A DNA stretch of 26,194 nt from a virus. The stretch lies in UHGV virus genome UHGV-0110177, one strand, 5' to 3'. Below are positions 1,884-22,499 of this stretch, one piece after another; the first letter of the stretch is position 1, and every line of letters starts with the position of its first letter. The translations under genes and the position numbers were made by a program. The notes beneath the pieces were generated by a model. That model was not told the origin of the DNA. It saw only the letters and a program-made list of their open reading frames with translations, and searched no databases.

Positions 1884-2156
1884 TCACTTAATCAGGCCAA
1901 GCGTGTAATTAAGTTCATGGAGGCATTCTTTGTCGTACTCAAAGAAGTAGTCCCATTGCTCTTGATTGCGGTGCTCACGAACCATCGCCCAGCGCCAGCC
2001 ATCGCCATCTAAAACGCGGCGAACCTTGCGTTTAACAACGGTATCAACATCGTAAATTACACCGTAATTAGCCCCGAACCCGTTACGCAAAACGTCAAGT
2101 TCAACAGTGATAACCCGGTATAATTTCGGAAGCTTTTTCAGTTCTTCAATACGCAT
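1884..2156 (-). CDS. Hypothetical phage protein (90 aa)
   Basis: ORF in operon; SD GGGGGTGA before ATG at 2156; overlaps 3' end of upstream gene. Confidence 0.55.
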   Translation of the reverse strand: MRIEELKKLPKLYRVITVELDVLRNGFGANYGVIYDVDTVVKRKVRRVLDGDGWRWAMVREHRNQEQWDYFFEYDKECLHELNYTLGLIK

Positions 2157-2766
2157 GGTCACCCCCGTCGATCCGTCTGAATTCGATTACCCACACCCAG
2201 GGGTTAGCATCCCAATTTTCTTGCCCATAGATTGACTGCCAGAGGTAGGCGAAGACATCAGTTGCGTCTGGTTGTGGATTAACACAGCCGCATGGCTCAG
2301 GTTCCCCGCAATTCAGACAGCCACCGTCAATAATGCCTTCTGCTCGCGCATCCTCTTCGCTGATAGCGTTCAACCGCTCAACCCGCACGTCTGTAATTTC
2401 CAGAAGAATACGACTAGCCCAGCGCGGCATGTGAATTGATGGACGCCATCTTCCTTCTTCTGGCCAGTCTGTAGGGGGCGTAGCCCGGTAAGCCATATCG
2501 TGGCTATCCTGGTCGATGTTGTAGCGCGCCCACGTCTCACGCACCCAGATGCGATCGCCGACGGCGCCGAACGGACAATGGATTGCGATATCTTCAATTT
2601 TCGGCAACAACAGTCCGTTAAGAGGTCTGCTTAACCACTTACCGGATAAACTTCCGCTTAATGTTGCCTCTGGCTGCGGCTTGATGATTCGCCGCGTCTG
2701 CGTCTTCCGGCCGTCGAGAATGGCGCGCACCATCTCACCATTAAAAATCATTCCGCGCTCAGTCAT
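2146..2766 (-). CDS. Hypothetical phage protein with C-terminal Cys cluster (CLNCGEPEPCGC), 206 aa from ATG 2766
   Basis: Long ORF; chosen start gives ATGACTGA overlap with the stop of the upstream gene; longer start at 2826 would overlap that gene by 68 nt. Confidence 0.6.
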   Translation of the reverse strand: MTERGMIFNGEMVRAILDGRKTQTRRIIKPQPEATLSGSLSGKWLSRPLNGLLLPKIEDIAIHCPFGAVGDRIWVRETWARYNIDQDSHDMAYRATPPTDWPEEGRWRPSIHMPRWASRILLEITDVRVERLNAISEEDARAEGIIDGGCLNCGEPEPCGCVNPQPDATDVFAYLWQSIYGQENWDANPWVWVIEFRRIDGGDHAY

Positions 2767-3109
2767 TCCAGGCCTCCAGCTCGTTCTGAATCTCTTCGTC
2801 GATATCGTCATTGGTCGCATCTTCATTCAGGAAGTCGCGCGCTTCTTTGAGATATTTTCCCCGGCGCAAGCGATACCAGAGAGAGAGAGAGAACTCATAG
2901 CTCCAGCAGTTCGGCGCGCCGTCATAGTCAAATTTGGCGTTGTTCTCAGCCATGCTCTCAACCATGTTGTAAGCAGTGTTGAGCGCCGCTTCGCGGATAT
3001 ACCCGCGCAGATCACGCTTGCGCCAGTACGGGTTTACTTTCGAATCGCAGAGTGGTTTAAATTCGACTTCCCAGCGGCGAATGCAGCGTGCATTTAATGA
3101 TTTGCTCAT
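2759..3109 (-). CDS. Hypothetical phage protein (116 aa)
   Basis: ORF in early-left operon directly downstream of recT. Confidence 0.55.
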   Translation of the reverse strand: MSKSLNARCIRRWEVEFKPLCDSKVNPYWRKRDLRGYIREAALNTAYNMVESMAENNAKFDYDGAPNCWSYEFSLSLWYRLRRGKYLKEARDFLNEDATNDDIDEEIQNELEAWND

Positions 3110-4157: not shown

Positions 4158-7049
4158 TTATGCCTGTACGCGCAGCGCTTCAAGGCGGCGCACATCAAAA
4201 TCGTTGAGTTCTTCGGCGTAATCTTCGGTAATCGGCGCTGGCCATTCGCCAGTGTCGAATCCGTTCGCGATGGCGCGCATTGCTTTGCGGTATTCCAGCA
4301 TGCCGAGTTCAAGCAGTTCTTCGGATGCCTCGATGATGGCGATCCAGTGGTAGTTCTCGTCTTTGTTGACGAATATCCAGAAAAACTGGTCCAGCGCTGC
4401 GGTTTCGCAGTACATGGCAGCGCTCAGGTGATAATCGCGATCGATGATTTCCCGGTGCAACTTCGCGCGCAGACCTTCCTGCTTGATATTCCACATGCTG
4501 ATAGTCTTCAGGTCAGCGCCGATGCGCAGGCCGCCCATGTCAATTTCAAGGTCAGGGCGCACGCGGATTTCCAGCCCGGTTTCCTCATCAATACCGAAAT
4601 AGCTCACCTCTACGGCGCGGTTCGGATGCGTCAGCAGCTTCCCGGCGGTCGGGTGATTCAGCAGCGCTTTCTGGATGGCCTGCGCGGTGCTCAACTGCTG
4701 GCGGGTAACCAGAATTTTATCGCCGGGGTTTTCGCGCCATGCGTCAAGCAGCTCGTCGGCAAACACTGTTTCAGGTTTGACGGATTTCACTGCCTGAATC
4801 AGATCCGCTTTGGTGCCGGATACTTTCAACGGCTGTGGCTTCTGTGCTTCCTGTGCAACGAGATCAGGATTGATGATCGCCAGTTGCTCAAGCAGCGCGT
4901 CACGGCTTCCGCTGGTTTTAACCGGCGCGGGCAGGGTGGCGTTGTATTCTTTGATGCAGGCCTTCATTGCCGCTGCTGTATGCTTAGTCCCGTTTTCGAT
5001 GCGCTGGAACTCTTCAGGCAATAGCTCATATGACGCATACGCTTCGTCGACGGATGCCCCAAGCGGTAATGGCGCGGGCAGGGTGGCGTTGTACTCTTCC
5101 AGCAACGCTTTGATATCGTCTGCGGTGAGTAATGCCGGCAGGCTGGCGTTGTGTTCGTCGATAACCGCGCGGATCGTCGCTGTCGTCGTGAGCGCGCCTT
5201 CCGAGATTTCCGGTTCGATGCTGAACTCTTTTTCCAGTTGTTCAGGCTGTAACGCCAGCGCGTGCACCAGGTTCCCCATATCCAGAACTTTGGTGCGTTC
5301 TTTCTGGATGGTTTTGGATACGTGGCGCGCTTCGAAATACATCAGACTTACACGTGCATCTTTGACCATTGTCGAACTGATGCCATTCGCCGCGTGATAT
5401 ACCTCGTTCGGTACGCCTTCATAACGCCCCGGCTCGAAGTATTCCGGCCACACTGACGCTGGCTCTGGTTCTTCCTGTTGCATTTCCGGCACGTTTTGTT
5501 GCGTTTCTGGCTCAGAATGGCTTGCAGAATCGTTGTTCTGGCTCACTTCCGGCTGATGGTGGTCTACATCGGCTTGCTCGCCGGTATCTGCCTCTTCACC
5601 ATTCCCCAAATCACTTTCGCTTGCGAGCAGCGCATCACCAGTCTGTTCTTCATTACCGTCAGTTTCTTGAACCTGCACATCGGCGGCGTCCTCATTTTCC
5701 GTTTTTTCTCCCTCATTTGAGGCGGCGTTGTAGTCTTCATGAACCCACTTCGGATCGTTAGGGTCACTGATACCTTCAACGTAATCACCGCGCGCAGCTG
5801 CGAGTTGTCGGTTTACTTCTTCAACGGATGGTTCATCCTGTCTTACTGGCGTTGGCATAGGCATGGACGAACGTCCGCAGGCAATATCAACGACAAGCGG
5901 ATCGGGATTGGCGTGGTCAGTTTCTGTCAGCACCTTATTCAGGTACTCGCGGTGGCGAAACGGGGATTTGTATAGTTCATCTGGTGTGGTTTTTACTGTT
6001 GCAACGATGCATGCGCGGGAATAGTCCAGACCACCAGGCATTGACACGAACAGTTCGCGCGTTGCCAGCCACTCAGGGTCGTCAACTGCGTTCATGATTG
6101 AGTTAGCCTTTAGTTCGATCTGCAATGGCAGAGAATAAATATCAAATTCGTACTGACGCGCCAGCAGGCCTAAGGCTATTTCAAATTCAAGACCGAGAGT
6201 GGTCTGGGGCATCTTGCGATCGGATGCAATTCCGCCGCCAGCGTTCGCGCCGCTTTCAGTACGCTGAATAGCTGATACACGATTACCTTTGCACCACTCT
6301 TTAACGAGCAACCCGCGATCAATATGAGGGGTATCGAACCATGTTTTCAGAAACTGGATAACGCTTGCCAGCTCAGGGATTTTGCCATCAGCAGGAAACA
6401 CGTTCTTAACGGCATTTACCGCTTTATGGATATCGTGTTCAATGGCCTTTTTGAATGGTTCAACATTCTCAGCCGCAAGTAAAATGTTCTGGACATATGA
6501 GTTATCAGTGTCCATTTCCAGAGCGAGAATTGCTTTTTTCTGCTCTGCATCGACATGATAGAGATACTCGCCATCGCCAATATGTTGGGCCAGTATGCGA
6601 TGACGGAAGGGCATCGTTGCCACAACGGTTAACTGAGGGTGTTCAGGTAGATCGCCATTGTCTTCAGTTGACGCCTGATCGTGCTGGATAATTTCGCCAG
6701 TTTCGGTATCAACACCATCAACGATACGCTGACGGGCGACGGCAACGGCCTCAGAAGAGGGCAGCGTAACACCGGGGATCTGTACCCAGGTCATGTTGTC
6801 TTTGCCGAGCTGGTAGAAATCGCAGAACGTTAAGCTGAGTTCGCCTTCCGGCGGCAGTTCGTTAACGACAGGGAAATTAGTGGCGACAGCTTTAAAATAA
6901 TCTTTCAGCTTTGCGCCGGATTTAATCAGGAGATAATCCAGTGTGGCATTTGCCGATTCAAAATCATCACTGCACCAGAGAACCGCATCTTTTTGTCCTG
7001 ATGATTTTTTTGCTTTGCGGACTAAAAATACAGGATTAGTTCCACTCAT
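4158..7049 (-). CDS. recE: Exodeoxyribonuclease VIII (RecE-like), 963 aa
   Basis: N-terminus from ATG at 7049 (MSGTNPVFLVRKAKKSSG...VLWCSDDFES...DYLLIKSG...KAVATNFPVVN) matches E. coli RecE N-terminus from memory; conserved LNKVLTETDHANPDP...DIACGRSS block; SD GAGGAT upstream; the ORF-track start at 7259 is a 70-codon over-extension. Confidence 0.85.
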   Translation of the reverse strand: MSGTNPVFLVRKAKKSSGQKDAVLWCSDDFESANATLDYLLIKSGAKLKDYFKAVATNFPVVNELPPEGELSLTFCDFYQLGKDNMTWVQIPGVTLPSSEAVAVARQRIVDGVDTETGEIIQHDQASTEDNGDLPEHPQLTVVATMPFRHRILAQHIGDGEYLYHVDAEQKKAILALEMDTDNSYVQNILLAAENVEPFKKAIEHDIHKAVNAVKNVFPADGKIPELASVIQFLKTWFDTPHIDRGLLVKEWCKGNRVSAIQRTESGANAGGGIASDRKMPQTTLGLEFEIALGLLARQYEFDIYSLPLQIELKANSIMNAVDDPEWLATRELFVSMPGGLDYSRACIVATVKTTPDELYKSPFRHREYLNKVLTETDHANPDPLVVDIACGRSSMPMPTPVRQDEPSVEEVNRQLAAARGDYVEGISDPNDPKWVHEDYNAASNEGEKTENEDAADVQVQETDGNEEQTGDALLASESDLGNGEEADTGEQADVDHHQPEVSQNNDSASHSEPETQQNVPEMQQEEPEPASVWPEYFEPGRYEGVPNEVYHAANGISSTMVKDARVSLMYFEARHVSKTIQKERTKVLDMGNLVHALALQPEQLEKEFSIEPEISEGALTTTATIRAVIDEHNASLPALLTADDIKALLEEYNATLPAPLPLGASVDEAYASYELLPEEFQRIENGTKHTAAAMKACIKEYNATLPAPVKTSGSRDALLEQLAIINPDLVAQEAQKPQPLKVSGTKADLIQAVKSVKPETVFADELLDAWRENPGDKILVTRQQLSTAQAIQKALLNHPTAGKLLTHPNRAVEVSYFGIDEETGLEIRVRPDLEIDMGGLRIGADLKTISMWNIKQEGLRAKLHREIIDRDYHLSAAMYCETAALDQFFWIFVNKDENYHWIAIIEASEELLELGMLEYRKAMRAIANGFDTGEWPAPITEDYAEELNDFDVRRLEALRVQA

Positions 7050-7176
7050 TGTTTTATCCTCACTTCGTGTAGAATGGAGGCGCCTTAATGGCACCTCGGT
7101 TTTACCAAGTAGAATGTCCGGTTCGCTTTGGTCGGTTAGACCGGACAGGGCAAGCCCACCTCGTGTGGGCTTTTGC

Positions 7177-7464
7177 TTAATGAACGGTGCTGAAAACTTT
7201 TTCTGAGTAATCGAGTTTGTAGCTGCGGTAGTTGCCAAACCCGGCGTTATCGCCATCACTTACTTTCACGGACAACATTGAAATTGCCTCTACAGCACAA
7301 AGAGGACAGTCGAACTTGCCGAATACATAGCCACCGTCAAGAATGACCGTGACCGCGCCCGTTTCGGCTGAATGAATAACGCCTGATACTTTCTTCTCGC
7401 AGTTGAATACAGCCAATTCTTTATTCACTGCTTTCAGGTTCATTTCGATTTTTACGATTTCCAT
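7177..7464 (-). CDS. Hypothetical phage protein (95 aa)
   Basis: ORF in early-left operon. Confidence 0.5.
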   Translation of the reverse strand: MEIVKIEMNLKAVNKELAVFNCEKKVSGVIHSAETGAVTVILDGGYVFGKFDCPLCAVEAISMLSVKVSDGDNAGFGNYRSYKLDYSEKVFSTVH

Positions 7465-8254: not shown

Positions 8255-8405
8255 GATTTATCCCTCTGCTTGCCGTTGTCGCCCGGCTGGCGGAACGTTT
8301 GATACCTGCTGCGCGTTAACTCATCCACCTCATCACCATCTTCATACGCCTGGTGCGGCTACATTCGTGGGCGTCCTGCCTGGGTGGTCGTGTTGCTGTG
8401 AATTT

Positions 8406-8472
8406 ATATTAAGCCTTAGACTTAACTAGTGTCAAGCTCAGGACTGAATTCATAGTTAAGTTTTAGGCTTAT
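8406..8472. promoter_or_regulatory. OL-like operator/promoter unit: 17-bp palindromes TTAAGCCTTAGACTTAA (8409-8425) and TTAAGTTTTAGGCTTAT (8456-8472); leftward promoter -35 TTGACA (8435..8430) and -10 TAATAT (8411..8406)
   Basis: Palindromes share the half-site TAAG/CTTA with the two sites between repressor and cro; good sigma70 hexamers on minus strand with 18-bp spacer. Confidence 0.6.
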
Positions 8473-8538
8473 TTTTTTGACGAATGTATGGGAGTAGAGG
8501 ATGCTTATGCTCACAAAAACGCCAAAGAGGATGGGTAT

Positions 8539-8742
8539 ATGTCAAACGATGATGAGTTTTTCGCGGAGATGCATCCGCAGATAGCGCAGGTGATCGGTAT
8601 GGCTGTGATGCAGATTCTGGTTGAAGGGCGTGAGATCACAAAGGCAGAAATAATCGAGACGATTCAGGTTCTGTGGCAGGAGGAGCAGGTTGATCTTGCT
8701 GTTGAGTTAGCGCTGGATGTACTAATGCTGCCAAAAGAATAG
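8539..8742 (+). CDS. Small acidic hypothetical protein (67 aa) transcribed rightward from the OL-like region
   Basis: ATG 8539 with SD GAGGA; reading frame continues from the track ORF 8488..8742. Confidence 0.5.
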   Translation: MSNDDEFFAEMHPQIAQVIGMAVMQILVEGREITKAEIIETIQVLWQEEQVDLAVELALDVLMLPKE

Positions 8743-9977: not shown

Positions 9978-10364
9978 CTATTCTCCGTCACCCTTAATCC
10001 GCCGCCCCATGTACTTGGCGTACAGCTCGTCGAGTTCCTTAAGGCGCAGAGACACGATCCGCAACATGTTCTGCTGCTCTTCTTCCGGCAACTGGCGATA
10101 GAGCTCGAGTAGGCGCTGTTCGTCAGGCTTAAGACCGTCCTTCTCTCCAACATCCTCACCAAGTAGCCAGGGAACTGATACGCCAGCAGCATCTGCAACC
10201 GCTAATGCAGAACTTTTGCTAATAACACCTTTTTTGAACCAGCCGTTTACGGATTGCGGGGTAATCCCCGCAACCCTTGCCATATCAGATTTTGTCATCC
10301 CTCGTTGCGTCAGTTCTGTCAAACGCTCGATGAGAATCGGGTTAAGTATTTTTTTCTCAGCCAT
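9978..10364 (-). CDS. Prophage repressor, HTH (XRE-type), 128 aa, no recognisable LexA-like S24 cleavage domain
   Basis: HTH motif MTKSDMARVAGITPQSVNGWFKKG; divergent from cro-like gene across the operator region; short C-terminal helical domain only. Confidence 0.8.
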   Translation of the reverse strand: MAEKKILNPILIERLTELTQRGMTKSDMARVAGITPQSVNGWFKKGVISKSSALAVADAAGVSVPWLLGEDVGEKDGLKPDEQRLLELYRQLPEEEQQNMLRIVSLRLKELDELYAKYMGRRIKGDGE

Positions 10365-10373
10365 ATCAGAAGA

Positions 10374-10441
10374 ATAAGCCTTTTGCTTATAAATTAAAAT
10401 TCGCTCAGGACTTGATCTTTTGTTAAGTCTGAGGCTTAATT
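10374..10441. promoter_or_regulatory. OR-like operator/promoter unit: palindromes ATAAGCCTTTTGCTTAT (10374-10390) and TTAAGTCTGAGGCTTAA (10423-10439); rightward promoter -35 TTGATC (10412-10417), -10 TTAATT (10436-10441)
   Basis: Inverted repeats read directly; placed between divergent repressor and cro-like genes; cro SD GGAGA follows. Confidence 0.65.
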
Positions 10442-10467
10442 TATTTGTGAATCTAGTGGAGATACTC

Positions 10468-10701
10468 ATGAACGGATTAGAAAAGGCCATTCAGAAAGCT
10501 GGCACTGCCAGCAACTTAGCCGCAAAGCTAGGCATTAAACCGATGTCGGTTAGTCGCTGGAAAACACGATACAAGGGCGTCGTGCCAGCCGATCGTGTTT
10601 TACCAATTTTCAACGCAACTGGTGTTACCCCCCATGAATTGCGCCCTGATCTGTATCCGAACCCCACGGACGGATTACCAGCGCAGGATGCGAGGGCGTA
10701 A
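10468..10701 (+). CDS. Cro/YdaS-like HTH protein (77 aa)
   Basis: HTH (ASNLAAKLGIKPMSVSRWK); first gene rightward of operators; SD GGAGA. Confidence 0.75.
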   Translation: MNGLEKAIQKAGTASNLAAKLGIKPMSVSRWKTRYKGVVPADRVLPIFNATGVTPHELRPDLYPNPTDGLPAQDARA

Positions 10702-11510: not shown

Positions 11511-11629
11511 AAGGGTGAAGACCGCTGTGCTCCAACACAGACGGCCTTCGGGTGCAATTCGTTGCGTACTCATTGCGAGATCATTATGACAAAGAGTTTT
11601 TCAAAACACCAGGCAAGGGAGGCATAGCT

Positions 11630-18804: not shown

Positions 18805-18828
18805 AAACCCGCTTCGGCGGGTTTTTTT
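18805..18828 (+). terminator. Rho-independent terminator (CCCGC-ttcg-GCGGG then T7)
   Basis: Read directly. Confidence 0.75.
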
Positions 18829-18899
18829 ACGCCTGAAATTTGTGTCTATGGGTTAACAATTCGTGCTCTTAAAACGTTGATCATTTCGCTTTATAGGTA

Positions 18900-18919
18900 T
18901 ACTGTATAAAAACACAGTA
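18900..18919 (+). promoter_or_regulatory. LexA box (TACTGTATAAAAACACAGTA) upstream of dinI
   Basis: Matches CTGT-N8-ACAG SOS box consensus; 19 nt upstream of dinI ATG. Confidence 0.8.
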
Positions 18920-18937
18920 TACGCAGTGGAGGCCACT

Positions 18938-19171
18938 ATGAAAGTTGAGTTAACTATTGATCGAACAAAGAAACTTCCTGATGGTGCAGTGCCAGCATTA
19001 GAAGCCGAACTGTTACGTAGGCTCAGCCAGAACTATGAAGGGGTAAAACTTACAATTCGCCGCGCAGGGGCTGATGGCCTGAGTATTCTGGGGGGTGAAA
19101 AAGGGGACAAGCAGCGCATTGAGGAGATTCTTCAGGAGACCTGGGTAAGCGCCGACGACTGGTTTTACTAA
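18938..19171 (+). CDS. dinI: DinI-like DNA-damage-inducible protein (77 aa)
   Basis: Recalled similarity to E. coli DinI (KQRIEEILQETWVSADDWFY C-terminus); LexA box upstream; SD GGAGG. Confidence 0.85.
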   Translation: MKVELTIDRTKKLPDGAVPALEAELLRRLSQNYEGVKLTIRRAGADGLSILGGEKGDKQRIEEILQETWVSADDWFY

Positions 19172-19288
19172 CATTGCGCTTGGGGCTGGCGCGCATTTTT
19201 TCAGAATACCGCAATTTGTGTATCCCTTTGATGCTGCTGCCGACAATTTTTAACCGCGTCTGTATGTCGCTCGAAGGGAGAATAGAAT

Positions 19289-19537
19289 GTGAGTAATTCA
19301 GCTTTGCAAACGTCAGAAGATAACTGGTATGACATTGTAAGACGGTCTGACGGCTGCGTGGTGTTTAGCTTTCCTTCGTCGGGCAGGCATCTTATCTATC
19401 GCGTCAATGGTATGGTTTCTATGCGGCCTTTGCTGGATGATGAAGAAGTCTTTACTCCCAATGGCTTTATGCAATTTATTCGCCGTCTCGGCTACCGGGT
19501 AACGCCACCTTCTGATAATATGAAATCAACGGTCTGA
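19289..19537 (+). CDS. Hypothetical protein (82 aa, GTG start), downstream of dinI
   Basis: SD AAGGGAG 9 nt before GTG. Confidence 0.5.
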   Translation: MSNSALQTSEDNWYDIVRRSDGCVVFSFPSSGRHLIYRVNGMVSMRPLLDDEEVFTPNGFMQFIRRLGYRVTPPSDNMKSTV

Positions 19538-19574
19538 ACAGCCGTTAACCTGCTGCGCCACGGAGTGAACAACC

Positions 19575-20171
19575 ATGGCGCAAACACTGTATTTTGAAAA
19601 GACCTTCCAGAACGCCCTGATTTCGGTTGATCCCGGAACCAGCGAATTTTTACAACTGTTACCAACAGGACAGTTGCTCACTGGTGAGTTCCGCAAGCCG
19701 CGAAACTACGCATTCCACAAAAAATTCTTCAAGCTATTGTCGCTTGGCTATCACTACTGGACACCAACCGGCGGACTTGTTGAGGAATCAGAGCGGTCGC
19801 TAATCTCCGGGTATATTGATTTCCTGTCATCAAACCCGACACAACGTAACGCGCTCCATAACGCTGCTGATATGTACCTGAATACTGTCGGACTGGTGCG
19901 TTCCCGCGAAGTCGTACTGCTGAAGCATTTCGAATCCTTCCGCGAGTGGGCAACTATTCAGGCGGGATTTTACGACGAATATATCATGCCCGATGGCAGC
20001 CGACGGCGCACGGCTAAATCCATTTCCTTCGCCAGCATGGATGATGCCGAATTTAACGGCGTCTATCAGTCGGTGCTCAACGTTCTCTGGAACTACATAC
20101 TGCGTCGAAAATTCCGTTCAGCGAATGACGTCGAGAACGCCGCCGCCCAGCTCATGAGCTTTGCGGGGTGA
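19575..20171 (+). CDS. Conserved phage protein of unknown function (198 aa)
   Basis: ORF in nin-like region. Confidence 0.6.
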   Translation: MAQTLYFEKTFQNALISVDPGTSEFLQLLPTGQLLTGEFRKPRNYAFHKKFFKLLSLGYHYWTPTGGLVEESERSLISGYIDFLSSNPTQRNALHNAADMYLNTVGLVRSREVVLLKHFESFREWATIQAGFYDEYIMPDGSRRRTAKSISFASMDDAEFNGVYQSVLNVLWNYILRRKFRSANDVENAAAQLMSFAG

Positions 20172-22241: not shown

Positions 22242-22499
22242 TTAGATATAAATCTCACTCTTACTTAGTGTGGTAAAAGAGGTTTTGGTTGGCGAGTTTA
22301 GTTGAAGATCTGAAATCAACCCGCCAACTTGCTGTTGACCCGATGTAATTACGTAAACATTTACTGTCTGATTTACATAAGTACTGAAATTTCCTGTAGC
22401 ACCCTGACTGATTTGGTGTAGTTGACTAGTCAGATTGTGGCGTTGAACTTCAAACTTAAAGTAAGCATCGTTTTGATGTTGAACACGGAAAATGTACAT
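22242..22499 (-). CDS. Hypothetical Q/N/S/T-rich protein (85 aa), reverse-oriented gene between Q and lysis genes
   Basis: SD AAGGAT before ATG; only ORF in ~650-bp gap. Confidence 0.45.
   Translation of the reverse strand: MYIFRVQHQNDAYFKFEVQRHNLTSQLHQISQGATGNFSTYVNQTVNVYVITSGQQQVGGLISDLQLNSPTKTSFTTLSKSEIYI

Follow-up and report, generated by a model that had tools for sequence, protein, structure and literature searches.

Palindromic sites in the immunity region of a Gifsy/Rac-type prophage as predicted operators of a lambda-style switch

The virus genome UHGV-0110177 was analysed as a single stretch of 26,194 bp (the window), which carries the immunity region of a Gifsy/Rac-type lambdoid prophage. 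A repressor gene and a cro-like gene are divergently arranged, and the 103-bp intergenic region between their starts holds both promoters together with two 17-bp palindromes, OR2 and OR1. Two further palindromes, OL1 and OL2, lie to the left at a leftward promoter (PL). In all likelihood the four palindromes serve as operators in a lambda-style immunity switch of this Gifsy/Rac-like prophage, and protein binding at them is predicted from the sequence. The cro-like gene is followed by a gene for a YdaT-domain protein (CII analogue; Pfam YdaT_toxin, E 2.8e-47) and then by O- and P-like replication genes, and to the left of the switch are RecT-like and RecE-like genes and an integrase. The host of the prophage is probably Citrobacter, from which an identical repressor sequence is recorded; close relatives come from Salmonella, Klebsiella, Enterobacter, Raoultella and E. 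coli. Recorded relatives bear generic names only ('helix-turn-helix domain-containing protein').

The palindromic sites and the proteins beside them

An earlier note on this DNA, made from the letters alone, had described two 17-mers of the form WTAAG-N7-CTTAW between the divergent genes, ATAAGCCTTTTGCTTAT and TTAAGTCTGAGGCTTAA, and their coordinates (Table 1) and centre-to-centre spacing of 49 bp are exact in the sequence. The symmetry continues inward to give 8-bp arms, a feature that the note had missed. The motif scan that it had proposed was run on the window and returned five exact matches (starting at 2618, 8409, 8456, 10374 and 10423), whereas 100 dinucleotide-preserving shuffles gave 0.09 on average and never as many as five. 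When one mismatch was allowed no further site appeared in the window. Four of the five matches fall into two pairs, with spacings of 49 bp (10374/10423) and 47 bp (8409/8456). The recurrence at 8409-8472, which had been taken to define the repressor regulon, is real, both 17-mers matching the motif; the pair belongs specifically to OL and PL, and the regulon within the window is four sites, not five.

A fuller consensus, TTAAGYCT-N-AGRCTTAA, was obtained from the sites of related loci, with 0.7-0.9 bits at each inner position. Scanned with the corresponding position weight matrix (PWM), the window has only OR1, OR2, OL1 and OL2 above noise (mean shuffle maximum 9.6), where the outer arm positions were preset by the pattern used to collect the sites and the independent information is that of the inner positions only. 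The centres of the TAAG and CTTA arms are 11 bp apart, about one helical turn, an arrangement that is standard for dimers of helix-turn-helix (HTH) domains.

Table 1. Positions of the sites, promoter elements and genes discussed, with PWM scores where available.
Feature	Position	Strand	Description	PWM score
OR1	10423-10439		TTAAGTCTGAGGCTTAA; in spacer of rightward promoter (PR), overlaps start of PR -10	26.3
OR2	10374-10390		ATAAGCCTTTTGCTTAT; in spacer of predicted repressor promoter (PRM equivalent); weakest consensus match	16.9
OL1	8409-8425		TTAAGCCTTAGACTTAA; in spacer of PL	26.8 (top in window)
OL2	8456-8472		TTAAGTTTTAGGCTTAT; 47 bp from OL1, counterpart of OR2	22.5
Next-best PWM match in window	22443-22459			9.0
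Intragenic motif match	2618-2634			4.1
Possible degenerate middle site	10399-10415		right arm only, AGGACTTGA; between OR2 and OR1, overlaps PR -35	
Equivalent possible half-site	8432-8448		between OL1 and OL2, overlaps PL -35	6.8 (below shuffle maximum)
PL	8406-8435	-	TTGACA (8435-8430), 18 bp, TAATAT (ends 8406); 10/12 matches in promoter scan	
PR -35	10412-10417	+	TTGATC; CTTGA in 60/60 unique OR sequences, TTGACA in many relatives	
PR -10	10436-10442	+	TTAATT (18-bp spacer) or TAATTT (19-bp spacer); overlaps OR1 right arm	
Predicted repressor promoter -10	10371-10376	-	TATTCT; overlaps outer arm of OR2, ends 6 nt before ATG 10364	
Candidate repressor promoter -35	10394-10399	-	TTTTAA (TTTTCA in relatives), 17 bp upstream of TATTCT; low confidence	
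Repressor gene	9978-10364	-	128 aa; N-terminal HTH_3 and conserved C-terminal helical domain; ATG 10364	
cro-like gene	10468-10701	+	YdaS family, 77 aa; GGAG Shine-Dalgarno 6 nt upstream	
LexA box	18900-18919	+	TACTGTATAAAAACACAGTA; CTGT-N8-ACAG match; terminator-like hairpin upstream (18808-18830)	
dinI homologue	18938-19171	+	Pfam DinI, E 5.1e-25; first gene of predicted LexA-controlled unit	
82-aa gene	19289-19537	+	candidate antirepressor; phrog_340; position of Gifsy gfoA/gfhA	
DUF1367 gene	19575-20171		follows 82-aa gene	

The fifth match (2618-2634) was rejected as a member of the regulon. It lies inside a coding open reading frame (ORF; 2146-2826, minus strand, phrog_874), and its PWM score is far below the 16.9-26.8 of the four sites, the inner positions fitting the operator consensus poorly. 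The same sequence recurs in the homologous genes of 22 of 80 related loci, two of which have TAAG-type immunity, five a heteroimmune repressor and fifteen no related repressor within 10 kb. Because it is present in homologous genes whatever the immunity type, this match is not an operator but a coding-sequence coincidence.

Both control regions also have a right-arm-like sequence, AGRCTTGA, midway between the two full operators and overlapping the -35 hexamer. It is centred at 10407 in OR (25 and 24 bp from the flanking sites) and at 8440 in OL (23 and 24 bp). The two bases before CTTGA read GR in 54 of 60 unique OR sequences and in 43 of 69 OL sequences, and the three bases before it read AGR in 28 of 60 and 34 of 69, a signal that is confounded with conservation of the -35 hexamer and scores below noise. 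These half-sites may, as a hypothesis from the sequence, be degenerate operators. Their position is that of OR2 in lambda, and they resemble the half-conserved repeats found between the palindromes of prophage CP-933P (PMC8630535).

The repressor matches only HTH_3 (E 2.9e-07) and HTH_26 in Pfam and is without an S24 peptidase domain; likewise, no peptidase match was found for it among solved structures. It belongs to the transcriptional regulators of phrog_8, and its N-terminal part weakly resembles the DNA-binding domain of the 434 repressor. Matches to ubiquitin structures were dismissed as spurious, being sums of short matches to polyubiquitin repeats. The Cro-like protein matches Pfam YdaS_toxin (E 1.2e-14) and a solved Cro protein (PDB 3bd1, E 3e-09). 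Behind the repressor gene on the same strand lie 9920-9468 (150 aa, no family match) and 9484-9128 (118 aa, phrog_6136, with a weak XhlA-like match), after which a terminator-like hairpin (9121-9100) closes the unit; the repressor operon appears to include both genes. PADLOC matched no defence family among the genes between the repressor and OL.

Promoters and the repressor transcript

PR, PL and the predicted PRM each have a 17-mer whose centre is at about -17/-18. The earlier note had missed the strong leftward promoter around 8409-8425, which was found by a promoter scan. PL reads leftward to kil/recET-type early-left genes, its spacer is filled by the OL1 operator, and both of its hexamers are conserved in 69 unique OL sequences. 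When inverted, the operator-promoter segment of PL matches 10422-10443 at 91%, which makes PL and PR inverted homologues. At PR the hexamers TTGATC and TTAATT that had been named before are present, and their overlap with the right-hand site is supported, with TAATTT equally possible as the -10. The sequence GGCTTAAT at this position is invariant across OR sequences, and related sequences fit either register. PR is absent from the list of the promoter scanner, whose rules exclude both TTAATT and TAATTT; the former went uncalled because it is without A at position 2.

The predicted PL transcript has a leader that is of interest in its own right. Just downstream of the predicted start, 8319-8393 (minus strand) is a candidate conserved structured RNA, with a closing helix (CCACC/GGUGG) that is invariant and two hairpins, a small one (GGC-N5-GCC) and one of 5 bp whose 12-nt loop (GGCAUACGAAnA) is conserved. 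In 18 diverse copies compensatory double changes are seen at 5/5 pairs of the 5-bp hairpin. An Rfam search of the control regions, including this leader, matched no known RNA family; the element might be nut/put-like or a processing element.

To the right of OL2, and reading away from PL in the opposite orientation to its neighbours, lies a gene for an acidic protein of 67 aa (8539-8742, plus strand; full-length match to phrog_3946, E 2.9e-33) with a GAGGA Shine-Dalgarno sequence. OL2 is 67-83 nt upstream of the 8539 start; the ORF start called mechanically at 8488 lacks conservation. A 59-nt direct repeat (D1) hinted at another PR-like promoter that would read rightward from OL2, but this promoter, with a poor -35, was not supported. 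The D1 resemblance comes mostly from the palindromic operator and from PL and PR being inverted homologues, and groups of loci differ in the DNA that follows OL2 on its right.

OR2 is centred at -18 relative to the repressor ATG, and the predicted -10 (TATTCT) ends 6 nt before this ATG, which fits a transcript without a leader, as the earlier note had proposed. No Shine-Dalgarno sequence was found before ATG 10364, and in heteroimmune relatives the last two arm bases start a TAnnnT hexamer (TACAAT, TACACT, TAGAAT or TAAAAT) that ends 6-8 nt before the repressor ATG in every immunity class. An AAATT block at the candidate repressor-promoter -35 is also conserved in relatives. From this geometry the transcript would appear to start at the A of the ATG. 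The paaR2 mRNA of CP-933P is leaderless by 5' RACE (rapid amplification of cDNA ends) and N-terminal sequencing (PMC8630535). In agreement with such a geometry, the gfhR promoter of Gifsy-3 is placed between two in-frame AUGs (PMC3121763), and the same holds for the annotated long ORF of phage mEp237 and for a 170-aa ORF in the window.

This 170-aa ORF arises since the repressor frame stays open upstream (10365-10490, minus strand) to an ATG at 10490, through the operators and into the cro start on the opposite strand. It recalls the N-terminally extended GfhR* made on induction of Gifsy-3. As a conserved, real form of the repressor it was rejected, many relatives having stop codons 1-24 codons upstream of the shared ATG; these fix the start there, the extension being open in some relatives only.

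Conservation, covariation and the reader of the sites

The comparison set comprised 27 genomic and 80 viral loci found by repressor search, with 6 loci from annotated phage and E. coli records. Repressors with the HTH sequence TKSDMAR..TPQSVNGW were found at 83 loci and are 82-100% identical, apart from one outlier at 68% (L031, Phytobacter). The earlier note had held that absence of the palindromes from homologous immunity regions would count against it. They are present at every locus of the same type: TAAG-N7-CTTA lies at -74/-75 from the repressor ATG at 83/83, and exact arms lie at -25/-26, always 49 bp from the other site, at 81/83, with a one-base change in the remaining two. The centre of OR2 is nearly invariant among these loci. 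A second (OL) pair is seen 0.9-2.5 kb beyond the repressor gene at 81/83, with a spacing of 47 bp (46 bp in 10). Across the set of 60 unique OR sequences, columns have a mean entropy of 0.013 bits in the arms, 0.30 in the centres and 0.72 in the remainder of the intergenic region. Taken with the position of the sites between divergent repressor and cro-like genes, the related loci strongly support a predicted operator function.

These data also bear on whether the palindromes could instead be RNA or DNA hairpins (terminators or processing elements) or chance AT-rich symmetry, which has a negligible probability. Chance is excluded by the five matches against 0.09 expected and by the conservation in 83 loci. 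For two of the four palindromes the fold is more stable than in shuffled sequence (-4.4 and -5.2 kcal/mol, with z about -3), but all four hairpins are weak (-0.4 to -5.2 kcal/mol), none has a T-tract, and the arms are invariant, without compensatory changes. The sites moreover lie upstream of the predicted transcription starts. A hairpin or terminator role was rejected on the weak folds, the missing T-tract and the invariant arms.

The operators change with the DNA-binding part of the repressor. At all 30 heteroimmune loci two palindromes lie 47-49 bp apart at about -25 and -73, with arms TAAA..TTTA. TAAG arms thus accompany the PQSV HTH at 83/83 loci and TAAA arms accompany other HTH classes at 30/30. 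The inner bases of the heteroimmune sites follow the HTH class in turn, PQAV occurring with TAAAC, KQAV with TAAAG and [SA]QSV with TAAACA/T. The HTH of Cro changes in parallel with operator type. An exact OL pair of the locus's own type is present at 19/30 heteroimmune loci, 46-48 bp apart and 0.5-2.5 kb away. Mosaic boundaries fall inside the repressor and cro genes (9978-10701; loci L003-L032). The C-terminal halves are common to heteroimmune phages (repressor, GEDVGEKDGLKPDEQRLLELYRQLPEEEQ...; Cro, TGVTPHELRPDLYPNPTDGLP), and only the HTH-coding halves and the operators in between are exchanged.

Since both HTH regions change with operator type, the sequence does not single out which protein reads the palindromes. 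They might be bound by YdaS alone or by the repressor alone, not by both as in lambda, but this is improbable. In every characterized lambdoid switch, including the YdaS-type switch of CP-933P, both proteins footprint the same region (PMC8630535), a repressor without sites at PR and PL could not confer immunity, and the distance of the OL pair and its promoter from cro agrees with a repressor role.

More improbable still is that the palindromes are sites of the CII-like YdaT or of a host factor, incidentally placed at promoters. YdaT of CP-933P is reported to bind an inverted repeat, TTGATT-N6-AATCAA (PMC9986795), but this motif differs from the operators here. E. coli CRE444 has ydaT DNA about 85% identical to that of the window, yet the palindromes at that locus are TAAAC-type; YdaT therefore does not track operator type, and it was rejected as their reader. 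A host-factor site would not vary with phage immunity class.

Several further points weigh against operators of a lambda-style switch. About 150 bp contain both the OR sites and the HTH-coding DNA, which are inherited as one mosaic block, and the covariation at OR may thus be linkage. The OL pairs match the HTH class across variable DNA, so that linkage alone is no explanation; they weaken this objection without removing it. Nor do the compared loci amount to 113 independent events; they stand for about four or five independent specificity classes. The promoters are not ideal, the -10 of PR being poor in both registers and the -35 of PRM matching at 3/6 positions. Finally, the spacings of 46-49 bp are non-integral in helical turns and vary within the family. 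Simple side-by-side cooperativity between full sites is therefore unlikely, and the spacing would be set by back-to-back promoter geometry, not by contacts between adjacent dimers.

Proposed mode of action and comparison with known switches

On the favoured interpretation, that the four sites are operators, the two recognition helices of a repressor dimer would contact the TAAG/CTTA arms in major grooves that are 11 bp apart. Bound at OR1 and OL1 the repressor would exclude RNA polymerase and so block PR and PL, and the cro/ydaT/replication operon and the early-left operon would then be silent. At high concentration the repressor would fill the weak OR2 in the PRM spacer, giving negative autoregulation. 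When the switch flips, OR2 would be the likely first target of the Cro-like YdaS, a preference of the kind measured in CP-933P. OL2, its counterpart in the left region, is probably an auxiliary operator.

Induction by repressor cleavage is probably not the route. A predicted LexA-controlled unit of dinI, the 82-aa gene and the DUF1367 gene, lying about 5.6 kb beyond the P-like gene, would more likely bring it about, the small protein being the antirepressor and the conserved C-terminal half of the repressor its target. The unit (18900-20171) has the order of the LexA-controlled antirepressor operons of the Gifsy phages (PMC3121763), and from this synteny, together with co-occurrence, we infer an antirepressor function for the 82-aa protein. 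Among phage-collection records 13 match it, of which 12 come from nine genomes (SW-37, SEN34, mEp237, PHB10, two Klebsiella phages, Chris1, SPN3UB and FSL SP-016), all with this repressor family; the 13th, from an Elizabethkingia phage, is a partial match only. Phage mEp237, although heteroimmune, has a protein 97.6% identical to it, which fits action on the half of the repressor that is conserved. A second CTGT-N8-ACAG match with a poorer centre (CTGTGCTCCAACACAG, 11525-11540) is found shortly before the O-like ORF, whose mechanical start is the GTG at 11552.

By this induction logic the closest systems are Gifsy-1 and Gifsy-3 of Salmonella, which have the repressors GfoR and GfhR and the LexA-controlled antirepressors GfoA and GfhA (Lemire et al., 2011; PMC3121763) and are likened to the present system by gene layout. 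The Gifsy-type repressors are about 130-150 aa long and have no cleavage domain, as is also the case for the 128-aa repressor here. In both, a LexA box, a dinI homologue, a small ORF and a further gene follow downstream of the replication genes (the DUF1367 gene may be the counterpart of irsA), the LexA box being 1.3 kb beyond the P gene in Gifsy and more distant in the window. The Gifsy antirepressors act across immunity types, which may be compared with the near-identity of the small protein in mEp237. Operator sequences are absent from the Gifsy report (PMC3121763) and the likeness rests on layout; the sole and indirect link to GfoR/GfhR is the mEp237 annotation, which cites a regulator of S. 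Typhimurium 14028S. The literature on GfoR/GfhR and on phages SEN34, mEp237 and SW-37 yielded no description of a TTAAGYCT-N-AGRCTTAA operator.

The closest characterized switch is that of CP-933P of E. coli O157:H7, with PaaR2 (CI-like), YdaS (Cro-like) and YdaT (CII-like) (Jurenas et al., 2021; PMC8630535). It has the same divergent pair of a short repressor and YdaS, with a gap of 97 bp (103 bp in the window) and with ydaT and an O-like gene downstream. Well-conserved palindromes are likewise placed over PRM and PR, where they have been footprinted in CP-933P, and a promoter-operator copy is found at PL. Leaderless repressor mRNA was determined there by 5' RACE, whereas here it is predicted from geometry. 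The operators themselves are unrelated, being 18-mers of the GTTTAGTAA type in four repeats as against two full 17-mers here, and the YdaS proteins have no detectable similarity. PaaR2 aligns with the repressor over the C-terminal 44 aa only (23% identity, E 9e-05) and its N-terminal DNA-binding domain does not align; full-length homology was not supported. Behind the repressor CP-933P has the paaA2-parE2 toxin-antitoxin pair, in place of which the window has two genes of unknown function.

PaaR2 forms octamers, and the C-terminal domain of the present repressor is remotely PaaR2-like. It is possible, if rather doubtful as a whole, that the prophage has a minimal switch with two full operators per region, one in the spacer of each back-to-back promoter, 46-49 bp apart and out of helical phase, in which assembly through the C-terminal domain, possibly with OL-OR looping, stabilizes repression in place of contacts between neighbouring dimers. 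That domain would also be the target of a common LexA-controlled antirepressor, and a few contacts would set specificity, PQS for example reading TAAG and PQA reading TAAA. If this were true, heteroimmune prophages would be induced together via the common antirepressor.

The layout also resembles that of lambda. In lambda the outer sites are 47 bp apart and the PRM and PR starts 82 bp apart, compared with 49 bp and about 84 bp here. Both have 17-bp pseudo-palindromic operators at divergent PR and PRM with a second set at PL, the repressor mRNA is leaderless in lambda and predicted to be so here, and in the window the place of rexAB, between the repressor gene and OL, is taken by extra genes. 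Lambda, however, has three adjacent operators per region, two of them filled cooperatively, whereas the window has two full sites and at most a half-site at the lambda OR2 position. Also unlike lambda, the operators lie inside the -35/-10 spacer and the repressor is without an S24 autocleavage domain, and no N-like protein was recognized.

Rac of E. coli K-12 (RacR/YdaS/YdaT; PMC5700373, PMC11879457) similarly has a short repressor divergent from ydaS-ydaT that represses by intergenic binding. It would appear to differ in repressor sequence class and in operators. A further likeness to Salmonella prophage islands, of which the Hfq-binding small RNA isrB is typical, is an Rfam match to isrB at 7087-7175 (plus strand; 74.7 bits, the gathering score being 35), which lies inside the RecE-like ORF (4158-7259, minus strand) and is antisense to its 5' part.

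The switch is well supported but of a familiar kind, with an immunity specificity that had not been described before. The conceptual gain is small, as a further variation of the lambda switch had been anticipated by the work on CP-933P and Gifsy. What is gained is a precise definition of the predicted operators in one immunity group and its heteroimmune relatives, among prophages that are widespread in Citrobacter, Salmonella, Klebsiella, Enterobacter and E. coli. The pairs of HTH class and half-site may be used in annotating PL, PR and PRM of Gifsy/Rac-like prophages and may provide a basis for orthogonal repressor-operator parts. As a natural specificity series, they could allow superinfection immunity to be predicted from sequence.

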